NCBI GenBank assembly: GCA_016933615.1
Contig: JAFGAO010000086.1
Span: forward strand, 1-61,109
DNA from: Acidobacteriota bacterium
GTDB taxonomy: Bacteria; Acidobacteriota; UBA6911
Length of the DNA: 61,109 nucleotides
Direction of reading: 5' to 3'
The translations under genes and the position numbers were made by a program. Shown in pieces: positions 1,789-18,198 of this stretch. Numbering within the stretch: the first letter of the stretch is position 1; the number at the start of each line of letters is the position of its first letter. The notes below the pieces were generated by a model. The model searched no databases and was not told the origin of the DNA. It saw only the letters and a program-made list of their open reading frames with translations.

Positions 1789-2280
1789 ATGAAGAAACTT
1801 CTGATTGTTTACAGCACCATGACGGGAGGCACCGGACAGATGGCCCGCGCCGCGGCCGACGGCGCCGCATCGGAAAAAGAGGTGCTCGTTCATCGGGTGC
1901 GGGCATCGAAAGCGGGCGCGGACGAAGTGACCGGATCGGACGGGTTCATCTTCGCGGCGCCCGAATATCTCGCCATGATGTCCGGATTGATGAAGGATTT
2001 TTTCGACCGGACCTATTACGCGGCCCTGGACCGGATCCGGGGGCGGCCTTACGCCCTGCTGATCTGCGCCGGCAGCGACGGCGAAAACGCCGCGCGGCAA
2101 ATCGCCCGGATAGCTGCGGGGTGGCGCCTGAAACCGGTCGCCGCCCCCCTGATCGTATGCACACAGGCCCAGACACCGGAACGGGCTCTGGCGCCCAAAA
2201 CGATCGCGGCCGCCGAACTGGACCGGTGCCGCGAAATCGGCGCAACCCTCGCCGCGGGTCTGGCGCTGGGGATTTATTAG
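1789..2280 (+). CDS. Flavodoxin / NAD(P)H-dependent FMN oxidoreductase family protein
   Basis: LLIVYSTMTGGT FMN phosphate loop; APEY..MSGLMKDFFDR. Confidence 0.85.
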   Translation: MKKLLIVYSTMTGGTGQMARAAADGAASEKEVLVHRVRASKAGADEVTGSDGFIFAAPEYLAMMSGLMKDFFDRTYYAALDRIRGRPYALLICAGSDGENAARQIARIAAGWRLKPVAAPLIVCTQAQTPERALAPKTIAAAELDRCREIGATLAAGLALGIY

Positions 2281-2507: not shown

Positions 2508-4796
2508 ATGGCGGACATCGAAGGCAGCAACGGACAGAGAACGGAATTCAGGGCTGTGGGCCGGGCCAACGTGCCCGGCAGGCTGTCGTACACCATAGCC
2601 ACGGGCCGGGCCAAATACGGCACCGACGCGGTCATGCCCGGCATGCTCCATGCCAAATTCCTCAGGTGCCCTTACGGCCGCGCAAGGGTAAAGGGAATGG
2701 ACACGCGCAGGGCCAGAGCCCTGGAAGGCGTGGTGGATATCGTCACCTGGGACGATCCGGAGGTCCTGGCCGTGAATCCGGGCCTGACTCATCCGCCCGT
2801 CAACACCATGGCCGGTATCCACGGCCCCCTTATCCCGGGCGAGGCGGAGACGGAGGACGAGGAAATCGGCGCGGTCGTGGTCGCCGTCACCCCGGAAATC
2901 TGCGAGGAGGCCCTGAGGCTGATCGAGGTGCAATGGGAAGTCCTGCCGAGCATCGTGGATGCCAGGGACGGCTTGAAACCGGGCGCGCCGGTCATCAGGC
3001 ACGACCCCAAAAAACTTTTGTCGAACTATACAACCGGGGATATGGAATCCGGTTTCAGGGAGGCGGACCATATTGTCGATTTCGACTGGGGACACTCCCG
3101 CACGGCGTCGCACATACCGAATCCGAACGGAAGCCTCGCCTGGTGGGCCCAGGACCCCTGGGGATCCGAAGGCCGGACCCTGTATATCGAAGGCGTATGC
3201 CCTACGTGGGGAGCCTTTCAGCTGCTCCCCCTGTACAATATCGGCTTCGACAAGCTCTATCGCCTTACCCTGTTTCAGGGCGGCAAGTACTGCGACTGGA
3301 TCATCCGACGCTCCCAGCTCATCACGCCCCTGCTGGCCCGCAGAACGGGGCGGCCCGTCCGCTGCGTAAACGACAGGCGGAACGATTACTATGTGGCGAA
3401 TCCGCAGCGCTATTGCCACGTAAAGATGGGATTCAGGAAGGACGGGACCATCACGGCCGTCGAGGAGAGCACCATCGGGGACCAGGGGGCTCCGGAAGAG
3501 ACGGCCTCCGCGTGGGGGGCGTTCGAAGCAAGATTCAGCCCTTTCAACACCACCCGGTGCGTCCATCAGAAGAGCCTTTTCCAGGAGGTCTACACCAATT
3601 CAGGCCGCAACACTCTGAGCCAGACTTCCCCGTTCAACTGGGACGTCATGACCATCGCGGAACAGATCGTGGCGGAAAAACTCGGTATGGACGTGATCGA
3701 TGTCGCGCTTAAAAACGTCCACGGGCCTTCGTCCCAACAGGATCCCGGCATCCCCCCGGGCCTGCGGATGTGCGTGGAAAAAGGGAAAAAGGCCATGGAC
3801 TGGAAATGGCATCCGGCCGGCACGCGGAAACTCCCGGACGGCCGATTGCACGGCCTGGCTTTCCGCTATGCCCTTTCGCCCCGGCACGCCCAGCAGCCGT
3901 ATACGGCGACGGTGACCATTCAGGCGGACAACAAGGTGTACATACCGCTCAAGGGGCCCTGGGCCGGCATCTATTCCGCCGATGCCGCAGCCCTGGTCGT
4001 CGCCGAGGAGCTGGGGGCGAAAGTCGAGGACGTGATCCTTCTCTACGATGAAAAAGCCATCTTCACGCCGTGCGGGGGCGGAAGCGACGGCTCCACCGCG
4101 TCCTCCTGGGTCATGAAGGAAGCGGCCGTAAAATGCAGAAAGCTGCTTCTGGACCAGGCGGCCAGATCCAGGGTGTTCAATACCAGCCCGGAGAATCTCG
4201 ACACAAGGGATACCATGGTCTTCCTGAAGCAGGATCCCGGCAAGGCGTACCCTTTCGGGAAGTTCATCGCGGACGAAGGATTCGGCGATCACGATCTGGA
4301 TATCACCGCGACCTTCTTCGGGAGGCCTCCGGAAACGACATGGGCCAAAAGCGGGCACATCCTCGATGTCATGAACACCAGCTACTGTGAAGTCGCCGTG
4401 GACACCGAGACCGGCGGGGTGGAAGTGACCAAATTCGTGGTGGTCTGCGATCCGGGCAAAGTGCTCAGATTGACATCGTTCGAAGGGCAGCTGCACCAGG
4501 CGATGTTTTTGAGCCAGGGAGGATTGTCCGAGGAATTCATCTACGACAAAGATACGGGCGTGAAGCTCAGTACGAACATGTTCGAATACAAAAAGCCCAC
4601 GATCCTGGACCTGGGGCCCATCGACACTTACGCCGTCGAGACCCGTTCCGGAAACGCCTGCTACGGCGCTTCCGGGATCAGCCACTGCATGGCGGCGCCG
4701 CTGCTTCCAGTATGCGCGGTAGCAAACGCCATAGGACATTGGATCGAGCCTCCGGCCACGCCCGACAGGATCCTGAAGGCCCTGGGCAAGGTCTAG
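2508..4796 (+). CDS. Xanthine dehydrogenase/aldehyde oxidoreductase family molybdopterin-binding (large) subunit, divergent
   Basis: 762 aa; ATGRAKYGTD..PGMLHAKFLRCP N-terminus; CEVAVDTETGGVEV..DPGK..EGQ; EYKKPTILD; PATPDRILKALG C-terminus. Confidence 0.9.
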   Translation: MADIEGSNGQRTEFRAVGRANVPGRLSYTIATGRAKYGTDAVMPGMLHAKFLRCPYGRARVKGMDTRRARALEGVVDIVTWDDPEVLAVNPGLTHPPVNTMAGIHGPLIPGEAETEDEEIGAVVVAVTPEICEEALRLIEVQWEVLPSIVDARDGLKPGAPVIRHDPKKLLSNYTTGDMESGFREADHIVDFDWGHSRTASHIPNPNGSLAWWAQDPWGSEGRTLYIEGVCPTWGAFQLLPLYNIGFDKLYRLTLFQGGKYCDWIIRRSQLITPLLARRTGRPVRCVNDRRNDYYVANPQRYCHVKMGFRKDGTITAVEESTIGDQGAPEETASAWGAFEARFSPFNTTRCVHQKSLFQEVYTNSGRNTLSQTSPFNWDVMTIAEQIVAEKLGMDVIDVALKNVHGPSSQQDPGIPPGLRMCVEKGKKAMDWKWHPAGTRKLPDGRLHGLAFRYALSPRHAQQPYTATVTIQADNKVYIPLKGPWAGIYSADAAALVVAEELGAKVEDVILLYDEKAIFTPCGGGSDGSTASSWVMKEAAVKCRKLLLDQAARSRVFNTSPENLDTRDTMVFLKQDPGKAYPFGKFIADEGFGDHDLDITATFFGRPPETTWAKSGHILDVMNTSYCEVAVDTETGGVEVTKFVVVCDPGKVLRLTSFEGQLHQAMFLSQGGLSEEFIYDKDTGVKLSTNMFEYKKPTILDLGPIDTYAVETRSGNACYGASGISHCMAAPLLPVCAVANAIGHWIEPPATPDRILKALGKV

Positions 4797-4850
4797 ATAT
4801 ATTTTTTACACCGTTTGGGGCACTATTTCCTGAAATAGAACGAGGTGGAA

Positions 4851-6614
4851 ATGAAAAAAAGGACGCTATTTTCCAATCAAATTTCGATGGCTGCATTCCT
4901 GGTTCTTTCCGGCATCGCGGCGATTGCGTCCGCGTGCGGTTCCGCCGCCTCCGGCGACGGGCGGATCACTGTTCTCAATCCGGCCGTTACGGAGAAGCTT
5001 GCCGAGCGGGTGCCGCTGGCCCCCCGCCTGGACACCCTGGAAGGAAAAACCGTCTACCTGGTCGACATGAACTACGAGGGGATCAACGGCACTGCAGTGA
5101 TGGGAGAATTGCAGAACTGGTTTGCGCGCAACATGCCCGGAGTCAAGACCGTCCTCAGGCTCAAAAGCGGCAGCTACATATCGGATGACCCGGCGCTGTG
5201 GAAGGAGATCAAGGAAAAAGGCGGCGACGCCGTCATCATGGGCGTCGCCGGCTGATGGGGGTGCATCGCGGCCGTCGGCCGCTTCAACGGGCTCCTGGAA
5301 ACGCAGTACGGCATCCCCACCGTGTCGCTAGCCAACGAAAACATCGTGTCCTTCGGAACCGGGGCTCATTTCAGGTACAGCACCGGCATGCCCCTGCGTT
5401 ACGTCGGGATGCCGTATCCCTTTACCGGCCTCAACGAGGAAATGCTGAAAAAATATCCCGACGGCCGGGACAGCGTCAGCGGCAAGCCCTTGATGGAGGC
5501 GATCGTCGGCTCCCTGACGGCGCCTCTTGCGGATGCCGAAAAGATATCCGGAACCCCGCCGGAAGCGGTGTCAGAGCCAAGATACCTGCCCCCGGACACC
5601 GCCGACAATCTGCAGCGCCTTTTCAAGGACCGGGACTGGACCGACTTCAATCCCGTCATCCTGCCGACTGAGGAAAAAGTGGCCGCGATGCTCAAAGGAA
5701 CCGGCCGCAAACCGGACGAGCTGGTCAAGAAAGAATCCGGCACCTTCGGGACCTCCCGGCCCTTCACGGTGGAAAAAGTCGCCGTCATCGCCGTCATGGC
5801 GGGTGCCAGGCCCGAATACCTGCCGACGATCCTGGCGCTCTCCACACAGGTCCCGTACATGGACTCCACCACCTCCAGCGCAAGCATGGCCCTGGTCAAC
5901 GGACCCGTGCGCAGGGAGATCGGAATGAACTCGGGCATCGGCGCGCTGGGGCCCAATGCCGAGGCCAATTCCGTCATCGGCCGCAGCATGGTCCTGATCC
6001 ATAAAATCATTCAGGGCTACAAGGAGGGCGTGAGCGGCTTTTCCTCCCTCAGCAACCCGATCTCTTACAGCTACGCGCCCATAGCCGAAAACGAAGAGGA
6101 GCTCCCCGAAGGCTGGCAGCCGTTCCACGTGCTGATGGGGCATAAGCCCGAAGACAGCGTCGTCACCGTGCTCATGGGCTGGAACTTCGTGAACTGTTCG
6201 GGGTCGGTCGTGGAGCACTACGCCCCGCAGCTTCTGATGCGGGACTTCATGGGAGTGCTCGCGGCAACCGGCGCCGCCACGCTGATCATGGACCCGTCCG
6301 TGGCGGACCTGCTCCGCAACGCGCAGGGATTTCAAACGAAAGCGGCGCTCGCCGAATGGCTCTCCCGGAACGCTCAGGTGCCCGCGGCCACCTACTGGGC
6401 CAATTCCATCGCGTCGGGCATGATGGGCCCTCTAGGCCAACAGGGTCTCGAACCCTATGCCACCTGGAGGAAAGTTCCCGGCGAAACGCGGATCCGGCAC
6501 TTTCCCAATGCCAGCAATATCCGGACCGTCGTGGTTGGAGGACAGACGGCGAGCGTCTGGTTCATCACCGATTTCATGGCCGGCCGGGGCGTATCGATCG
6601 ACGCCTGGAGGTAA
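4851..6614 (+). CDS. UGSC-family selenoprotein (Sec at TGA 5253-5255, U135-W-G-C) fused to a large C-terminal domain; N-terminal signal peptide
   Basis: Two track ORFs are in the same frame and separated only by TGA; readthrough gives DAVIMGVAG-U-WGC...ETQYGIPTVSL; SECIS-like hairpin downstream; RBS GAGGTGG before ATG 4851; LAPRLDTLEGKTV and WTDFNPVILPTEEKVAAML motifs. Confidence 0.85.
5268..5282 (+). promoter_or_regulatory. Putative bacterial SECIS apical hairpin
   Basis: GCGGCC-GTC-GGCCGC perfect 6-bp GC stem starting after a 12-nt spacer 3' of the in-frame TGA; loop starts with G. Confidence 0.6.
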
Positions 6615-6657: not shown

Positions 6658-8766
6658 ATGCCCAAGAACCTGTATCTGACCACCACCAGCCCGTATGCCG
6701 GCAAAAGCGCCATAATTCTGGGACTGATGTCCGCCCTGCTGCGCGAATTCAGGCGCGTGGGCTACTTTCGTCCCATAGGCAGAAGCGATCAGCTGGCGCA
6801 ACATCCGGACCCGAACGCCTACCTGGTCTGCTCCGTTTTCGGCCTCGACTGCGACCCCAAATCGGCCGTCGGCATCCAGGCCCCGCAGGCGATGGAAATG
6901 ATCACCCGGGGCCGCCAGGCGGAGCTGATGGAGGAAATTCTCGCCGCGTACAAGGCGTTCGAGAAGAACTGGGATTTCGTGCTGGTCGAGGGCACGAATT
7001 ACCAGGGCTCCAGCACCGCCTTCGAGTTCGAAATCAACGCGGAAGTGGCCCGGAACCTAGGCGCCCCCGTGCTCCTGCTGGTGAGCGGCAGGGGCCAGAG
7101 CCCATCCGGGATTTACGAAAACATCTGCATCAGCAAAGAGCAGTTCGAAGACCAGGGCTCCGACCTGCTGGGCGTCATCGCCAACCGCGTCGAACGGGAG
7201 GACTTCGACGCAACATTGAAGTTCCTTCGGGAAAAACTCCCGGAACGGGGAATCCCGTTTGCGGGGGCGGTTCCCGAAGACCAGATCCTGGCCAAGCCGC
7301 GCATGGACGAAATCGCCGCCGCGCTCGGCGCCGAGGTCCTTTACGGAGAAAAATACCTGGACAACCTGGTGGACAACCTCCGGATCGCATCGATGCAGCT
7401 GCCGACCCTACTGGAGAGAATCGGGCCGGGCGCTCTCATTATCGCGGCTGGAGACCGGGCGGACATCCTGCTGGGAGCCATCGCGTCCCAATTGTCCAAC
7501 AGGATGCCGAAGCTGGCGGGCGTGCTGCTCAGCAGCGGACTGCGCCCCAGCGAGACGATCGACCGGCTGATCAAGGGAATGGAGCGCATCCAGCTTCCCG
7601 TGCTCGCCGTGGATTCGGGCACCTACCAGACCGCCATCGACGTCAGCCGCGTGACGGCCTCCATCATGCCCCGCAGTTACCGCAAGATCGAGACGGCCCA
7701 GATGCTTTTCGACGAGCACGTGGACCTCGACGTGATCCTCAGGGGCGTCATGGCCAAGCGGGAGAGGAGAGTCACCCCGAACCTGTTCCTGTACAACCTT
7801 CAGGAGCAGGCGCGTTCGGACCGGAAGCACATCGTTCTGCCGGAGGGCGCGGAAGACCGCATCCTGCGCGCGGCGCAGATTCTCCTGCACCGGAAGATCG
7901 TGGATCTCACCCTCCTGGGCCGGGAGGAGGAAATCCGGAACCGGGCCGAACAGCTCATGGTGGATCTCAAAGGCGTCGAAATCGTCGATCCCAGGACCTC
8001 GCCCCGCCTCGACGGCTACGCGGCCGAATACTTCAGGCTGCGCGAGCACAGGGTCGTCACGCCGGACATCGCGAGGGAAACCATGCAGGAGCCCTCCTAC
8101 TACGGGACCATGATGGTCTACAAGCAGGACGCGGACGGGATGGTGTCCGGATCGATCAATACGACGGCCCACACCATCCGGCCCGCCTTCGAGTTCATCA
8201 AGACAGGGGAGGGAGTGAAAATCGTCTCGAGCGTTTTCTTCATGTGCCTGGCCGACAGGGTGCTGGTCTACGGAGACTGCGCCGTGAACCCGAACCCGAC
8301 CGCCGAGGAACTGGCCCACATCGCCGTCACCAGCGCCAATACGGCGCATTCCTTCGGGATCGAACCCCGCGTGGCGATGCTCTCCTACGCGACCGGCATG
8401 TCGGGCAAGGGAGCGGATGTGGACATGGTAAAGGAAGCCACGAAAATCGCCCGCAAGATGCGCCCCGACCTGCCCATCGAAGGGCCGATGCAGTACGACG
8501 CAGCCATCGACGTTTCCGTCGCCCGGACCAAGATGCCCGAAAGCAGCGTGGCCGGACGCGCGACCGTATTCATCTTTCCCGACCTGAACACGGGCAACAA
8601 CACCTACAAGGCGGTGCAGAGGTCCTCGGGCGCGATCGCGGTGGGCCCGGTGCTGCAGGGCCTGCGCAAGCCGGTCAACGACCTGAGCCGCGGCTGCACG
8701 GTCGCCGATATCGTCAGCACCGTCGCAATCACGGCGATACAGGCCCAGAACGCCGACAGAAAATAA
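6658..8766 (+). CDS. pta: Phosphate acetyltransferase, long (AAA_26-DRTGG-PTA) form
   Basis: N-terminal P-loop PYAGKS; GDRADI DRTGG region; IVLPEG; YGDCAVNPNP; FPDLNTGNNTYKAVQ; PVNDLSRGC. Confidence 0.95.
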   Translation: MPKNLYLTTTSPYAGKSAIILGLMSALLREFRRVGYFRPIGRSDQLAQHPDPNAYLVCSVFGLDCDPKSAVGIQAPQAMEMITRGRQAELMEEILAAYKAFEKNWDFVLVEGTNYQGSSTAFEFEINAEVARNLGAPVLLLVSGRGQSPSGIYENICISKEQFEDQGSDLLGVIANRVEREDFDATLKFLREKLPERGIPFAGAVPEDQILAKPRMDEIAAALGAEVLYGEKYLDNLVDNLRIASMQLPTLLERIGPGALIIAAGDRADILLGAIASQLSNRMPKLAGVLLSSGLRPSETIDRLIKGMERIQLPVLAVDSGTYQTAIDVSRVTASIMPRSYRKIETAQMLFDEHVDLDVILRGVMAKRERRVTPNLFLYNLQEQARSDRKHIVLPEGAEDRILRAAQILLHRKIVDLTLLGREEEIRNRAEQLMVDLKGVEIVDPRTSPRLDGYAAEYFRLREHRVVTPDIARETMQEPSYYGTMMVYKQDADGMVSGSINTTAHTIRPAFEFIKTGEGVKIVSSVFFMCLADRVLVYGDCAVNPNPTAEELAHIAVTSANTAHSFGIEPRVAMLSYATGMSGKGADVDMVKEATKIARKMRPDLPIEGPMQYDAAIDVSVARTKMPESSVAGRATVFIFPDLNTGNNTYKAVQRSSGAIAVGPVLQGLRKPVNDLSRGCTVADIVSTVAITAIQAQNADRK

Positions 8767-8882: not shown

Positions 8883-9020
8883 AGGATGAACTGTGAGGGT
8901 ATTGGTAAATTTGGCTTTTAAAAAGCACAGGACAAGAATTAGGACAATGGCTGGAGGGCATCGTTGCATTCATGCACCGACATGCCCCAGCAAAGATTCA
9001 ATCTCCCTTTGGAGGATTCA

Positions 9021-12000
9021 ATGAAAACTCACTATAAACTCAGCGTTCTTTTGCTGCTGACGGTGATGGCCCTTTTCAGCTCGCAAATGTACGGCCAGGA
9101 AACGACCGGATCCATATCCGGCGCCGTCACCGACCAGTCGGGCGCGGTGATTCCGGACGTGATTGTCACCATCACGAACCAGGAAACGGGTCAGACGTTT
9201 GAGGTCGTCACCGGTCCGTCCGGAAATTACCTAGGCCAGGCTCTGCGCCCGGGACGATATTCCGTCTCCTTTGATGCCAGTGGTTTCACGGGCAAAGAGA
9301 TCCGCGATATCGTCGTGCTGCTAGGCCGGGTATCCAAGGTTGACGCGAAGCTCGAAGTGGGCGGGATCGAAGAGACAGTTACAGTAACGACGGCCGCAGC
9401 GCTCATCGACACCCAGTCCACGATGATTTCGTTGAACATCCCTTCCGAGGAATTCGACCAGCTGCCAAAAGGACGGAGTTTCCAGGCCCTGGCCTCGTTT
9501 CAGACCTCGGTCAACACGGGGGAGGTTGAAGGCGGCATCCAGGTCAACGGAGCCAGCGCCGCGGAAAACAACTACTACATCGACGGTGCATCCACCACCA
9601 GCGTTCTTGACGGCAGCGCGCGCCAGAACGCCTACCTGGAATACGTGCAGGAGGTGCAGGTGAAAACCTCCGGGCTGGAAGCCGAATACGGCGGGGCCAT
9701 GGGGGGCGTCATCAGCGCCGTCACCAAATCCGGCGGCAACGACTTCCACGGAGAAGTGCATTATTACTACTACGGCAACAAACTGAATGCCAGCCCCACC
9801 GAACGTCTGGAACTCAGTTCCGAAGATTACAAGACGGTGGAATACTTCCAGGACAGCAAGCAGAAGAGGGACTATCACGAAATGGGCGGCACCCTGAGCG
9901 GCCCCATCGTCAAGGACAAGCTCTGGTTCTTCTCCTCGCTGGCGCCGCAGTGGTACAGGGCCAGCTACGGCTACCATTTCGCCGACGGGGACGATACCCT
10001 TCAGCGCAATGCACACAGGATGAGCTGGTTCAACAAAATATCCTGGGATCCCACCAGCCGCATCCGCACCAACTTCACCTACCTGTACTCCCCCCAGTAC
10101 GTGACGGGTTCTCTGCCCGTCTATGACAGCTGGGGTCCCAACCAGTCTTCGCTGACTGTGGAATCGGCCCAGGGGCGCAGGACACGCGGCTACAACCAGC
10201 CCGAAAGCAGCTATACGGGGAGTATAGACTTTACCCTTACAAATTCATCCATCCTGAGCGTCAAGGGGGGGCGCTACTACCTGAACTACAAGGAAGTCGG
10301 CATCCCTTACGACACCTACTATTGGTGGAGAAGGAGTTCCATAGGGCTGGAGGGCGTTCCCGAGGATCTGCAGCAGGATGCCGATTTCCAAACTCCCAGC
10401 GCAGCCAGGGTCGTTTTCGATAAAACGACGCGAACCTACGTTCAGGCCGACTACAGCCACTATGTCAATTTCGCCGGGGAGCACAACTTCAAATTGGGCG
10501 TGGGCGTACAGAAAAATGTGAACAACGTCGACGACAAATGGTTCGGAACGGGCGGCCGTGTCGAGATCTACTGGGATGGAGATTACACTCCCCCCGGGGC
10601 CGAAGAGCCGGTCCGGGGCGAATACGGCTGGTATATAGTACAGGATGCCAAAACCTTCGGATCGGCCGGGGCCACCATCACCCACATGTACATCCAGGAT
10701 TCCTGGAGAATCCATCCCCGTCTGACCCTGAATCTCGGCCTGCGCACGGAAAGGGAGGTCATCCCCGCTTTCAACAAGGAAGCGGCGCAGGAGTATCTGG
10801 GCTCCGATTACGCCATCAAGTTCAACTTCCAGGACAAGCTGGCCCCGAGACTGGGCGCCAGCCTGGACGTGTTCGGCGACGGCCGGCTGAAGGTTTACGG
10901 CGGCTGGGGGCGCTATTTCGACTGGACCAAGTACGAGCTGGCCCGCGGGTCCTTCGGGGGCGACCAGTGGTACACATACTACCGCACGCTGGACACGCCC
11001 GACGTCTACGACATCAGCCTGGAAAATATGCCCGGAGACAACATCTGGATCTCGGAGTTCCGCGACAGGCGCGGGACCGATTTCGACATGCTGGATCCGG
11101 ACATCAAGCCCATGAGCCTCGACCGGACCAACTTCGGCATGGATTTCGAAGCCGCGCCCAATGTCGTCATTTCCGCGCGCTACACGCGGAGCAAACTGAA
11201 CCGCACCATTGAAGACATCGGCGTGCTGGATGAAACCGGCAGCGAGGTCTACAGCTACGGCAATCCGGGCGAAGGCGCCAACACAATCGGCTTCGTGACC
11301 GGAGAAACCTGCGAGGTTACCGAGGGAGAGTCCTGCGGTTTCATCATGCCTAAAGCAGTGCGCATCTACAACGCCTTCGAGATGTCGGTGTCCCGGCGTT
11401 TCACGGGCGGGTGGCTCGGCAGCATCAGCTACGTCTACAGCGACCTGCACGGCAACTACGCCGGACTGCAGAACACGGACGAGATCCGGCCCCCGACGCT
11501 CGGCTACGGCTACGGCACCAACCAGGTGTTCGGGGCCACCAACTACCGGCCCGGCGGAAACGTCAACCGCTATTTCGACCTGGATGAAGCCATGTACGAT
11601 GCCTACGGCAACAAGGGCGTCTTCGGCCCCCTGCCGACCGACCGGCCGCACGTGCTGAAAATCTACGGCTCCAAGCAGTTCTCCTTCGGCACCGATGTCG
11701 GTCTTTTCTTCAGAATCATGAGCGGAACTCCCGTCACGACCCAGGTGAACACGGTCAACGGCATCGGAATCCTGGTGGAGGGACGCGCCGACATGGGACG
11801 GACGCCCGTTCTCAGCCAGACCGACCTTCTGCTAGCCCACAAGATCTCCGTGGGAGAAGGCAAGAAGGTCCAGTTCGAGTTCAATTTCGAGAACCTGTTC
11901 AACCAGAAGACCGCAACATACATATTCGACCGCTACAACCGGGAAGAATGGTACGATACTTCCGGCATGTATCTGGGCGGTGAGGACCTTACCCAGGGAT

Positions 12001-12143
12001 ATGACTGGCGGGCGCTGGTCAACGAGAGTCCGGATGCCAACGATTCGACGTATGGCAATATTGCACTGGATTCGCGTTACGGCATGAAAGCCGTCTTCAA
12101 TCCCGGCTTCTCGGGCCGTTTCATGATCAAGTACCTGTTCTAG
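9021..12143 (+). CDS. TonB-dependent receptor (Oar-like) with N-terminal carboxypeptidase-regulatory-like domain
   Basis: Signal peptide; TGSISGAVTDQSGAVIP; AEYGGAMGGVISAVTKSGGN plug; QDSWRI..LTLNLGLR; terminal Phe; GGAGG RBS. Confidence 0.92.
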   Translation: MKTHYKLSVLLLLTVMALFSSQMYGQETTGSISGAVTDQSGAVIPDVIVTITNQETGQTFEVVTGPSGNYLGQALRPGRYSVSFDASGFTGKEIRDIVVLLGRVSKVDAKLEVGGIEETVTVTTAAALIDTQSTMISLNIPSEEFDQLPKGRSFQALASFQTSVNTGEVEGGIQVNGASAAENNYYIDGASTTSVLDGSARQNAYLEYVQEVQVKTSGLEAEYGGAMGGVISAVTKSGGNDFHGEVHYYYYGNKLNASPTERLELSSEDYKTVEYFQDSKQKRDYHEMGGTLSGPIVKDKLWFFSSLAPQWYRASYGYHFADGDDTLQRNAHRMSWFNKISWDPTSRIRTNFTYLYSPQYVTGSLPVYDSWGPNQSSLTVESAQGRRTRGYNQPESSYTGSIDFTLTNSSILSVKGGRYYLNYKEVGIPYDTYYWWRRSSIGLEGVPEDLQQDADFQTPSAARVVFDKTTRTYVQADYSHYVNFAGEHNFKLGVGVQKNVNNVDDKWFGTGGRVEIYWDGDYTPPGAEEPVRGEYGWYIVQDAKTFGSAGATITHMYIQDSWRIHPRLTLNLGLRTEREVIPAFNKEAAQEYLGSDYAIKFNFQDKLAPRLGASLDVFGDGRLKVYGGWGRYFDWTKYELARGSFGGDQWYTYYRTLDTPDVYDISLENMPGDNIWISEFRDRRGTDFDMLDPDIKPMSLDRTNFGMDFEAAPNVVISARYTRSKLNRTIEDIGVLDETGSEVYSYGNPGEGANTIGFVTGETCEVTEGESCGFIMPKAVRIYNAFEMSVSRRFTGGWLGSISYVYSDLHGNYAGLQNTDEIRPPTLGYGYGTNQVFGATNYRPGGNVNRYFDLDEAMYDAYGNKGVFGPLPTDRPHVLKIYGSKQFSFGTDVGLFFRIMSGTPVTTQVNTVNGIGILVEGRADMGRTPVLSQTDLLLAHKISVGEGKKVQFEFNFENLFNQKTATYIFDRYNREEWYDTSGMYLGGEDLTQGYDWRALVNESPDANDSTYGNIALDSRYGMKAVFNPGFSGRFMIKYLF

Positions 12144-15692: not shown

Positions 15693-15889
15693 TTCTTTCC
15701 TCCGCCCGATTTCGTTCCGATAGCGGCTTCAAAATTGGATCCCGGGCAATCGTTGCCGCGTACCGTTTTCTTTCCCCGGAGCCTGAGCCGCAGCCGTCAA
15801 GGCAAATAGATGTTCTTAATTTATAGCCGCAACGCCTCGGGAGACTTCACGAAAACCGATTGCTTTATTATCTATAATTATCGTGGCCA

Positions 15890-15937
15890 GTTCCCATTAT
15901 ATGTCCTATTATAGGGGTCCGTTCCCATTATATGTCC
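15890..15937. repeat. 17-bp direct repeat GTTCCCATTATATGTCC x2 (31-bp period)
   Basis: Copies at 15890-15906 and 15921-15937; palindrome CCTAT-T-ATAGG at 15905-15915. Confidence 0.8.
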
Positions 15938-16062
15938 CTCTGGATTGTAAAGAATGCGCAGGATTGGTTTTAATGAGAAACACCAACGTTAAAGCCGGCG
16001 GCAGAATAACTTGCCCGCCACGCGTCTATGCCGCCGATGCATTTCCCGGCCGGATGCTCAAA

Positions 16063-18198
16063 ATGAAAGCCGTCGCGGCGCTGGCGGCCCTTCTTGTGCT
16101 GTCAACCGGTTGCGGTTCGGCATCGAACCCGCCCCCCGAAAACAGAGCGCCGACTGCAGCCAATCCGGGATCGCAGGCGGGCGTCGTGGGGCAAACGGCG
16201 AATCTGCGGATTGCGGCCGGCGACGCAGACGGCGATGCGCTGCGGTTTTCCGCTGTCGGCCTGCCCAGCGGACTGCAGATTCATGCATCCACCGGTCAGA
16301 TTTCCGGCATCTATGGAACGGCCGGCAATTATGCGGTTACTGTTACCGTCACCGACGGTCGATACTCGGTCCGCGTGGAATTCTTCTGGAACGTGGTCGA
16401 ACCGCCCAACAATCCGCCTTTCGCCGTGGCCCAATATGTTTTCACCGGCTTCGACTCGCCGCGGGCCATCGTGCTTGCGGGATCCGATCCCGAAAACGAC
16501 CCGCTGACCTTCGACATCGCGGCCTATCCCGCAAGCGGCAGCCTGAACGGGAATCCGCCGGATCTGACTTACACGCCGGACCCGGGATTCAGCGGGACCG
16601 ACAGTTTCCGGTTCACCGTCTGGGACGGCGAGTACACGAGCGACCCGGCGGAGGTCGCGATCTTCGTTCGACCCGAGGGCGGCGCGGCGCCCAATATCCT
16701 GTTCGTCGTCATGGACGACATCGGGATGGACGCGTCGTCGCAAATGCATCCGGGGCTGATCGAGGATCTCGCGGCGCAGTACGGGCCCCAGGGCCACAAC
16801 CACCCTTTCTATCGCCGGATCGCCGGCCGCCCGGCATCGACGCCGACGCTGAACACGCTGGCCCGGCAGGGCATCGCGTTTGCGCAGACCTGGGCGCAGG
16901 CGTACTGCTCGCCCACGCGCGCGTCGATTCTGACCGGGCTCTATGCCGCAAAAACGGAGGTCTTCGATTACGCGGATTCATTGTCGCCGGGCCATGAGAC
17001 CGTCGCCCGCATCCTCAGGGACGAAGCGGGTTACAGCACGGCGATTTTCGGCAAATGGCACGTGGCGGGGCTGGGTTTCTATCCGGGCATGAAACCGAAG
17101 CAGGCGGGCTTCGACCTGTTCCTCGGCAACCTCAGCGGCGCGATCGAAGACTACTGGAGCTATGAATATCAGATCCAGGACGAAACCACGCCGCCGAACC
17201 AATGGCGCACGGAAGCGGCGCCCACGCGCTCCCTGCCCGGCATCGCCCCGACCACGTTCGCGCCTGTCGTCAAGGCCGCCGATACGATCGAATGGATCAC
17301 GGAGCGGGAAAACGCGGATCCGGACAAACCGTGGTTCGCCTGGCTCGCGTTCAATCTGCCGCATATCGCGAGCGGGCAGGCGCCGACGTTCGTGCCCAAC
17401 GAGGACACGCTGGATGAACCCACGAGGGATGAGATCCTGGCCTGCGGCGGCGTTTTCGGCACCGACAGCATCGGCGCGTGCTCGGGCCCTGCGCTCAACC
17501 GCGCCATGACGAATTCGCTCGACACGGTCCTCGGAAAGCTGCTCGAGGCGGTCGATGCCCTCGATCCGGTCACCTACGTGATCGTCATCGGCGACAACGG
17601 AACGCCGATGTACGGCTGGCCGGCAACCAACTTCATCGACAACATGTACATCACGCGAACCGGCCGCGCCAAGGGCACGGTCTATGAAAGCGGCGTGCGC
17701 GTCTCGCTGGCCATCCGCGGACCCGGAATCGCCGCGGGCCGCCAGAGCGCCGCGGTCAACCATGGCGCCGACCTGTTTGCGACAATTCTGGACCTTGCGG
17801 GCGCCGGCGTTCCCTCAAGCGTCCCGGCGGGAGGGGGAGGCGGCTCCGTCGCGCTGGATTCAGTCTCGCTTGCGCCGATTCTGTTCTCCGGCGCCGGGCA
17901 AGTGCGCGAGCCGGACTACGGCACCGTGATGTCGGAGACGGTCAACCCGCTGGCGAACGACGAGCGGCAGGCCGCTGCAAAGAATGCAAGCTACAAGCTC
18001 CTCTGCGTAGAGGACACGCAAACCGCGAGCTGCACCTTCTACGACCTGGTCGACGATCCGTTAGAGGAGTACCCGCTGCCGAAGCCCCAAAGCTGTCTCA
18101 ATTTCGACAACGGAACCTGGACGCCGGCGGATCGCGAGTGGCACTTCTGCAGGCTGCAGGGAATTCTCCGCACGCAGTCGTTTTTGGGCGAGCCTTGA
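16063..18198 (+). CDS. Formylglycine-dependent sulfatase with two N-terminal Ig-like domains, predicted lipoprotein
   Basis: Signal ending LSTGC; LPSGLQI..TGQISG putative-Ig; NNPP.A..DPENDPLTF..YTP Big_9-like; PNILFVVMDD; CSPTRASILTG; GKWH; GDNG. Confidence 0.88.
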   Translation: MKAVAALAALLVLSTGCGSASNPPPENRAPTAANPGSQAGVVGQTANLRIAAGDADGDALRFSAVGLPSGLQIHASTGQISGIYGTAGNYAVTVTVTDGRYSVRVEFFWNVVEPPNNPPFAVAQYVFTGFDSPRAIVLAGSDPENDPLTFDIAAYPASGSLNGNPPDLTYTPDPGFSGTDSFRFTVWDGEYTSDPAEVAIFVRPEGGAAPNILFVVMDDIGMDASSQMHPGLIEDLAAQYGPQGHNHPFYRRIAGRPASTPTLNTLARQGIAFAQTWAQAYCSPTRASILTGLYAAKTEVFDYADSLSPGHETVARILRDEAGYSTAIFGKWHVAGLGFYPGMKPKQAGFDLFLGNLSGAIEDYWSYEYQIQDETTPPNQWRTEAAPTRSLPGIAPTTFAPVVKAADTIEWITERENADPDKPWFAWLAFNLPHIASGQAPTFVPNEDTLDEPTRDEILACGGVFGTDSIGACSGPALNRAMTNSLDTVLGKLLEAVDALDPVTYVIVIGDNGTPMYGWPATNFIDNMYITRTGRAKGTVYESGVRVSLAIRGPGIAAGRQSAAVNHGADLFATILDLAGAGVPSSVPAGGGGGSVALDSVSLAPILFSGAGQVREPDYGTVMSETVNPLANDERQAAAKNASYKLLCVEDTQTASCTFYDLVDDPLEEYPLPKPQSCLNFDNGTWTPADREWHFCRLQGILRTQSFLGEP

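Follow-up and report, generated by a model that had tools for sequence, protein, structure and literature searches.

A predicted long-form UGSC selenoprotein with a conserved in-frame TGA and numerous paralogues in an Acidobacteriota genome

The window analysed in this work is a stretch of 61,109 nucleotides (nt) from an Acidobacteriota bacterium of the UBA6911 lineage (assembly GCA_016933615.1, contig JAFGAO010000086.1, positions given for the forward strand). Its positions 4851-6614 very probably constitute a single gene that encodes a selenoprotein of 587 residues, in which the TGA at codon 135 is read as selenocysteine (Sec). The UGSC selenoprotein family is already known and the protein described here is a long-form variant of it, consisting of a UGSC domain and a large second domain. 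The re-annotation of the gene itself is solid, as judged from the sequence comparisons presented below, and its interest is raised by the dozens of predicted exported Sec proteins per genome to which it leads.

Reading frame and the in-frame TGA

A preliminary description of this locus, made from the sequence alone, had noticed two open reading frames (ORFs) in one frame with only a TGA between them. Translation confirmed this observation: the ORFs 4845..5255 (GTG start, 136 aa) and 5322..6614 (GTG start, 430 aa) share a frame, and 4851-6614 translates as a single product whose sole internal stop is the TGA at 5253-5255, with the TAA at 6612-6614 as the stop of the long frame. The 22 codons from the TGA to GTG 5322 are free of stops and encode WGCIAAVGRFNGLLETQYGIPT, just as first written. 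The start is probably not GTG 4845: ATG 4851 in the same frame is the likelier one because a GAGG sits 5 nt upstream of it.

The alternative closest at hand is that the TGA simply ends a protein of 134 residues and that a separate ORF of 430 residues starts at GTG 5322, the locus thus being two genes or a nonsense pseudogene. Default gene calling indeed gives exactly these two ORFs. The public gene calls in relatives point the same way, the best 120 matches in a public protein search all being fragments of 408-447 residues, one of which (an orthologue fragment of 446 residues) carries the name 'UGSC family (seleno)protein'. Several observations argue against this explanation. The Pfam UGSC domain continues across the TGA, and GTG 5322, which had been described as lacking an obvious ribosome binding site, proved on inspection of the sequence to have no purine-rich motif like GAGG upstream. 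In addition, the codons between the TGA and GTG 5322 are kept as protein. Over the 21 codons after the TGA, 19 orthologues differ from the window gene at 84, 47 and 147 places in codon positions 1, 2 and 3, respectively, and since most of these changes are in the third position, coding continues past the TGA.

The TGA itself is strictly conserved. All 20 same-genus orthologues compared (71-83% identity) have it in the same alignment column and read GVAGUWGC. A search of 60 related genomes found an orthologue in all 29 same-genus genomes and an in-frame TGA in 148 of the 150 matches listed; the remaining two matches are partial and begin after residues 148 and 155, past the Sec column. Orthologues align over residues 1-587 with exactly one TGA apiece. 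In named public genomes, all 117 gene copies (79 loci) with an alignment across the column have TGA there. A TGA kept at one column in this way is unlike a decaying pseudogene, and we regard the explanation by two genes or a pseudogene as extremely improbable.

More distant homologues were collected with a profile search of a library of 1.84 billion representative proteins, which returned 8457 clusters (at 50% identity) with E <= 0.001. The residue at the Sec column was counted in the 69 representatives among the best 150 of these clusters that cover the N-terminal domain. Cys is present in 31 of these 69 full-length representatives, typically as CxxC, and in a stricter set of representatives all 23 with Cys at position 135 also have Cys at 138. 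The Cys homologues run continuously through the column, which again speaks against two genes, and the similarity extends to both sides of it, as the preliminary description had suggested should be looked for. About 46 of the best 150 representatives (counted by eye) start at profile positions 134-159, which is expected of gene calls that restart after an unread TGA.

For the decoding of UGA as Sec, the preliminary description had named selA, selB, selC and selD as the genes to be looked for, and all of them were found in the host genome (an assembly of 3.6 Mb in 298 contigs, 82% complete). selA (560.9 bits), selB (382.6 bits), a tRNA-Sec (73.3 bits; called SeC with anticodon tca by ARAGORN) and two selD genes (contig C97:30985-31911, minus strand, and contig C203:61511-62440, plus strand) all score above the curated cut-offs. 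Each of the two selD genes has one in-frame TGA, and both products are probably Sec-containing selenophosphate synthetases.

It might also be possible that the TGA is read through as another residue, either by near-cognate insertion of Trp or Cys or by a lineage-wide reassignment of TGA, and the inserted residue is not distinguishable by computation. A changed genetic code is excluded since TGA is an ordinary stop in the window, where 19 of the 54 stop-to-stop frames of at least 300 codons terminate with it, and since selA and selB contain no internal stops. The complete Sec machinery, a hairpin at the usual distance behind the TGA and the Cys found at this column in homologues, which is the signature of Sec/Cys pairs, also argue against another residue, and we consider this explanation very improbable. 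No RNA run was listed as containing the gene, and contigs of four runs covered it in short pieces that nowhere bridge the TGA and carry no weight either way. Judged by sequence, the internal TGA almost certainly encodes selenocysteine.

Bacterial selenocysteine insertion sequence (SECIS) elements are stem-loops located shortly downstream of the UGA, with G or U in the apical loop. A SECIS-like hairpin was found at this position (Table 1), and its 30-nt window ranks in the bottom 3.7% by folding energy when compared with every in-frame window of the gene. A perfect stem of at least 5 bp is present at the site in 18 of 23 non-redundant family members versus 37% of control windows from the same genes; the apex is located at +23.4 +/- 2.2 nt, and most loops contain GU. 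Paralogues with quite different peptides behind the Sec keep a hairpin at equal distance (with loops such as CGUGA, GGUC, GUU and GUC), and in 11 of 16 paralogues its window is within the lowest 15% of the windows of its own gene by folding energy. Nevertheless, the hairpin is the weakest of the five lines of evidence for selenocysteine. The statistic is modest for DNA with 58% G+C, considering the share of control windows that also score, and five of the 23 members do not have a perfect 5-bp stem. Furthermore, the 71-nt fold as a whole is unremarkable (z = -0.70), and the conserved peptide AAV(S/G)RF could account for part of the hairpin conservation among orthologues.

Domain architecture and proposed function

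The N-terminus of the protein resembles a signal peptide, a feature absent from the preliminary description. Residues 1-28 have a Kyte-Doolittle maximum (12 residues) of 2.47 with three Lys/Arg ahead of it, and orthologues have sites of the type ...APVQA in place of A-S-A-C29. A signal-peptide-like N-terminus was found in 14 of the 17 full-length copies of the family in this genome and three are without it. The protein would thus be exported by the Sec translocation pathway, and Cys29 may be lipidated.

The UGSC domain was identified with Pfam PF24696, the match covering profile positions 2-157 of 172 and crossing the TGA; a genome-wide search with the same profile recovers identical domain coordinates with one TGA inside. 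Membership of the UGSC family, which had been proposed from the motif, holds at the level of the domain (50.6 bits, cut-off 25) but not at that of the NCBIfam equivalog NF041046, for which the score is far too low (24.7 versus 125 bits). Passing the Pfam threshold and failing that of NF041046 identifies the protein as a long-form relative and not as a classical UGSC protein of about 150 residues. Of the family motif U/C-G-S-C, the sequence U-W-G-C keeps the U and the C and not the G-S; it may be read as a UxxC variant of this motif, as had been proposed for Sec135, and paralogues in the same genome vary at both middle positions.

In the full-length AlphaFold model (predicted local distance difference test, pLDDT, 82.6; predicted template modelling score, pTM, 0.81), Sec135 is part of a three-layer alpha/beta domain, at the end of strand 127-131 and directly ahead of helix 136-152. 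Residues 63-231 of the model gave CheY-like, flavodoxin-like and B12-binding-like structural matches with Z 8.5-10.1 among the best 50, the best rows being Z 10.1 (root mean square deviation, rmsd, 4.9 A over 141 residues) and Z 10.0 (rmsd 2.6 A over 115 residues). A flavodoxin/CheY-like fold is therefore predicted for the UGSC domain. No thioredoxin was among these best 50 matches, which does not exclude a family that is not listed there.

The large C-terminal domain that had been proposed as a fusion partner was located to residues ~236-587. Modelled alone with 112 sequences in AlphaFold2 (AF2), residues 236-587 reach a pLDDT of 93.5 and a pTM of 0.92. Conserved residues are D265, P272-T273, T306, M316-A317-G318, G351, N373, R378 and E413, and the alignment columns of this domain contain no conserved Cys or His. 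Library scans with the full protein assigned no Pfam or NCBIfam family to the C-terminal domain, and a profile search of the sequences in the Protein Data Bank (PDB) gave nothing below E 0.5. Foldseek against the PDB returned template modelling (TM) scores of 0.23 or less and no convincing solved relative; VIA-align in wide mode reached Z 5.7 at best (rmsd 2.9 A, 79 residues), which is below the noise level stated for the tool, and the ESM Atlas contained unnamed clusters only, with no usable named match. The Foldseek matches of the domain were class I fumarate hydratase and Toblerone-fold amidohydrolases (TM <= 0.23). With the whole model, Foldseek against the PDB gave scattered matches to SHMT and class I fumarate hydratase (TM <= 0.18), and VIA-align in wide mode returned matches to the N-terminal domain only. 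No fold was assigned from any of these matches, and weak nitrogenase-like structural rows (Z 3.8-4.5) were considered and likewise dropped. The C-terminal domain thus appears to be a confidently modelled fold without a solved relative.

UGSC domain and C-terminal domain are fused in thousands of proteins, as seen in the 8457 clusters, and the C-terminal domain also stands alone in hypothetical proteins of 353-384 residues. In three same-genus genomes we found a split form, in which a gene for a short UGSC selenoprotein (215 residues, 164 bits on PF24696), a DUF6282 gene and a gene for a stand-alone C-terminal domain follow each other on one strand (Table 1). That the two domains are fused in some cases and lie side by side in others argues that they work together. 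Covariation between the CxxC and columns of the C-terminal domain was looked for and none was prominent.

Taken as a mature protein, the product would consist of a flavodoxin-like domain presenting Sec135-x-x-Cys138 at a strand-to-helix junction and of a conserved second domain of about 350 residues. The C-terminal domain could hold a substrate, or a disulfide or comparable bond, for attack by the Sec135 selenolate; Cys138 would then resolve the adduct to a selenenylsulfide, which an external reductant would re-reduce. UxxC selenoproteins such as PrdB and Trx-like proteins follow this chemistry. We therefore propose, with a confidence that comes close to an even chance, that the protein is a periplasmic selenol/thiol redox enzyme with Sec135 as nucleophile, Cys138 as resolving residue and the C-terminal domain as substrate-holding part.

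Several observations weigh against this proposal. In 38 of the 69 full-length representatives the column is occupied by S, M, G, A, T or another residue, and the conserved residues of the C-terminal domain persist in representatives without Cys at the column. Among the 15 full-length TGA-bearing paralogues in this genome, one reads U-G-A-A and thus is without the partner Cys. The case for export is a reading of hydrophobicity and motif only, and no constant gene neighbour was found among the 18 copies of this genome, 28 orthologue loci and 25 copies in a closed 6.9-Mb genome of a relative (G012); the gene can therefore not be placed in a pathway.

The strongest competing explanation of the function is a selenoprotein whose U-x-x-C is not a catalytic redox centre and instead belongs to a periplasmic carrier or chaperone for a metal or metalloid or for selenium or sulfur, or acts as a regulatory switch on an enzyme whose chemistry is carried out entirely by the C-terminal domain. 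The core of the C-terminal domain, which is kept with or without U/CxxC, and the many representatives without Cys at the column fit this possibility. So does the location of 6 of the 18 copies beside or near molybdenum/tungsten (Mo/W)-pterin enzymes, together with three genes of the xanthine dehydrogenase (XDH) type and two for aldehyde:ferredoxin oxidoreductase (AFOR or AOR) among 62 neighbours in G012. However, the neighbourhood is inconstant, with an XDH-type gene at only 4 of the 28 orthologue loci, and no conserved cluster of metal-binding His or Asp was found. In addition, redox pairs usually have just this geometry, a UxxC located where a strand passes into a helix. We consider a carrier, chaperone or switch rather unlikely.

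Paralogues and gene neighbourhood

The very large paralogue family was, like the signal peptide, absent from the preliminary description. A profile search of the contigs of this genome found 18 places with PF24696, all of the long form. In 16 copies, 15 of them full-length and one truncated, the Sec column has an in-frame TGA. Motifs in these paralogues are UHGC, UDGC, USTC, USVC, UPGC and one true UGSC. The same search in same-genus genomes counted 58, 45, 35, 28 and 27 UGSC domains. An in-frame TGA is present in 25 of the 28 matches listed for G012 and in 32 of the 42 listed for a further genome (G028). The 16 TGA-bearing copies here and the dozens in relatives within this group of sediment bacteria point to a family that has diversified over many substrates or partners.

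Individual copies deviate from this pattern. The U-G-A-A paralogue (C253:16677-18488, minus strand; locus L046:12678-14489) adjoins a same-strand gene for a molybdopterin oxidoreductase of the bis-pyranopterin guanine dinucleotide (bis-PGD) type with a twin-arginine translocation (Tat) signal. The truncated copy (C44:6219-6821, minus strand) has an extra TAA and is probably a pseudogene; it adjoins an AFOR gene, as does a copy that lacks a signal peptide as well as both Sec and Cys at the column (C181:87-1805, minus strand). Another paralogue (C14:1181-2875, minus strand; locus L052) has two neighbouring in-frame TGAs at the Sec site, G-G-U-U-G-C, and two further TGAs (H-U-V-U) where other copies run on to the C-terminal motif. 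Two TGAs within the UGSC domain were also found in same-genus genomes (G023:C20:40219-40740 and G006:C61:16380-16901), thus the doublet may be real, and a product with several Sec residues is possible from the sequence. In G028, 17 of the listed UGSC-domain matches are located within about 155 kb of one contig (C12, ~47,000-203,000), which resembles a genomic island formed by the family.

The nearest relatives are labelled as metagenome-assembled genomes (MAGs) of Acidobacteriota, among them 'Acidobacteria bacterium UBA6911'. MAGs labelled Desulfatiglans and Desulfatiglandales gave matches at 66-69% identity. Orthologues at 66-76% identity were found in MAGs labelled Desulfatiglans, Desulfatiglandales, Desulfobacteraceae and Deltaproteobacteria (L060, L064, L067, L073-L076 and L078-L080); bins may have been labelled wrongly here, or genes may have moved between the two groups, the nearest orthologues being labelled Acidobacteriota. 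Matches at ~40% identity were found in MAGs of Terriglobia and 'Candidatus Acidiferrales', where two or three TGA-bearing copies stand in tandem. The tandem triplets at L104, L107, L115-L119, L124, L126-L128 and L131 (Acidiferrales, Terriglobia and other Acidobacteriota MAGs) are made up of TGA-bearing copies of the long form that read G-H-U-S-(T/S)-C-T-P-A, and many other loci contain two copies.

The genes surrounding the selenoprotein gene in the window are listed in Table 1; a [2Fe-2S] or FAD subunit gene was not seen beside the XDH-type molybdopterin subunit gene in the window. An XDH-type gene beside the orthologue was found at L055, L057, L068 and L070 of the 28 orthologue loci (L055-L082), and Pta as a flanking gene recurs only at L055 and L057. 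The loci that share these flanking genes are those of the nearest relatives. The neighbours of the paralogues are mixed and include TonB-like outer-membrane barrels, esterases, a tannase, XDH-type genes, AOR, the Tat-signal Mo-bisPGD enzyme, a peptidase and others. The Mo/W-pterin neighbours in this genome are XDH-type genes at C39 and C253 and nearby at C249, AOR at C44 and C181, and the Tat-signal enzyme at C253. In G012, 71 ORFs near the 25 copies were picked, nine short ones with atypical G+C at the codon positions were dropped, and no family has more than four members among the 62 that were kept. A link to selenium-dependent molybdenum hydroxylases was also considered for the family and was retained solely within the metal or carrier explanation.

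Table 1. Location of the features discussed, in the window unless a locus is named
Feature	Position	Strand	Basis or remark
FMN-reductase/flavodoxin-like ORF	1789-2280	+	Upstream of the selenoprotein gene
XDH/aldehyde-oxidase-type molybdopterin subunit gene	2508-4796	+	Ends 54 nt before the selenoprotein gene
Shine-Dalgarno-like GAGG	4842..4845	+	5 nt 5' of ATG 4851; read from the sequence
Single coding sequence, 587 residues + TAA, with TGA 5253-5255 as probable selenocysteine	4851..6614	+	Translation; orthologues align over 1-587 with one TGA each; domain match over the TGA
Signal-peptide-like N-terminus: MKKR, hydrophobic stretch, A-S-A-C29 lipobox-like site	4851..4934	+	Hydropathy and motif
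UGSC domain, Pfam PF24696, residues 41-201	4971..5453	+	E 3.2e-13, 50.6 bits versus cut-off 25
In-frame TGA, predicted Sec135	5253..5255	+	TGA 20/20 and 117/117, Cys 31/69; modelled between strand 127-131 and helix 136-152
TGC, Cys138, partner of Sec135 in U-x-x-C	5262..5264	+	Nearly invariant (at least 90% of 25 sequences)
SECIS-like hairpin GCGGCC-GUC-GGCCGC	5268..5282	+	RNA folding; begins 15 nt past the U of UGA
C-terminal domain, residues 236-587	5556..6611	+	No Pfam family; AF2 pLDDT 93.5; conserved columns
Long pta, AAA_26 and DRTGG domains	6658-8766	+	Starts 43 nt after the selenoprotein gene
Outer-membrane barrel, 1059 residues, CarboxypepD_reg, Plug, OMP_b-brl_4	8964-12143	+	Domain scan
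Sulfatase, 771 residues, with Ig-like and cadherin-like domains	15883-18198	+	Domain scan
Split-form loci in same-genus genomes	L154 (G023:C42), L155 (G006:C29), L156 (G028:C12)	one strand	L154 with a further open frame behind

Relation to known selenoproteins and significance

UGSC-containing proteins have been described as selenoproteins of unknown function that rank among the selenoprotein families with the highest abundance in ocean metagenomes (PMC2398784); UGSC was counted as a single-copy family (PMC1976440) and is listed in reviews (PMC9312934 and PMC13188914). With classical UGSC proteins (PF24696, NF041046; Zhang & Gladyshev, PMC2398784, PMC1976440) the protein from the window shares a PF24696 score above threshold and a Sec in UxxC at the Sec column of the family. 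It differs from them in having UWGC instead of UGSC, a signal peptide, as predicted above, and an extra domain of 350 residues, so that it comprises 587 residues whereas the classical proteins are small (147 positions in the NF041046 model). Furthermore, a thioredoxin-like fold was guessed for UGSC in 2008 (PMC2398784), whereas residues 63-231 were modelled here as flavodoxin/CheY-like.

A 'UGSC/Unknown_1' fusion is mentioned for the Global Ocean Sampling (GOS) metagenome in PMC2398784. Our protein is likewise a UGSC fusion, and its C-terminal domain, which may or may not be Unknown_1, also occurs alone. According to the same paper, fused domains are 'as a rule' marked by conserved Cys, whereas the C-terminal domain described here has none. 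The passages of PMC2398784 on UGSC/Unknown_1 report no paralogue expansion or signal peptide.

GrdB and PrdB (PF07355), the selenoprotein B components of glycine, sarcosine, betaine and D-proline reductase, serve as a mechanistic analogy only. These proteins work with a second, substrate-binding polypeptide and have substrate-specific paralogues. The Grd and Prd proteins are cytoplasmic, whereas the protein from the window is predicted to be exported. The likeness is the UxxC Sec motif of PrdB, which is listed as a UxxC selenoprotein in a table of PMC2398784. Kinship with GrdB/PrdB was rejected since the protein has no PF07355 match at E <= 1 (only PF24696 matched); a search of the genome with PF07355 also found none, a weak result as the control genomes likewise gave nothing. 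Thioredoxin-fold UxxC selenoproteins (Trx-like, Prx-like and DsbA-like; PMC2398784) have a comparable selenol/thiol pair, and some of them, such as the DsbA-like proteins, are extracytoplasmic; the protein described here differs in its predicted flavodoxin-like fold, its much larger size and its two domains.

In the literature searched on UGSC selenoproteins and on selenoproteins of UBA6911/Acidobacteria and Desulfatiglans, as far as the sources were available in part, no long-form expansion, signal peptide or fold assignment was found. The scale of the expansion thus appears to be unreported in the searched literature; Figure S1A of PMC2398784 could bear on priority.

The family is large and systematically mis-annotated: all gene calls seen in close relatives are 408-447 residues long and the Sec-bearing half is lost. 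The C-terminal domain is widespread, as the 8457 clusters at 50% identity demonstrate, confidently modelled and nameless, and is an obvious object of structural and biochemical studies. This one family gives 16 genes with an in-frame TGA in a genome that is 82% complete and at least 25 and at least 32 in two relatives. If these TGAs are translated as Sec, UBA6911-like Acidobacteriota, Desulfatiglans-like bacteria and Acidiferrales would be among the heaviest selenocysteine users known, and most of that selenium would be located outside the cytoplasm.

Possibly, though we hold this only tentatively, the long-form UGSC proteins represent a new selenoenzyme class whose two-domain members are exported, either to the periplasm or as lipid-anchored proteins, and have a catalytic domain of unsolved fold. 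Their TGA-bearing genes number at least 25 in the closed genome of 6.9 Mb and at least 32 in a second genome, and form tandem triplets in peat and soil Acidobacteriota. Should this be true, these bacteria would rival or exceed the largest prokaryotic selenoproteomes quoted in reviews and papers including PMC13188914 and PMC1976440 (39 selenoproteins in S. fumaroxidans and 57 in the Olavius delta-1 symbiont), and anoxic sediments and peat would have a large demand for selenium that has gone unrecognised.

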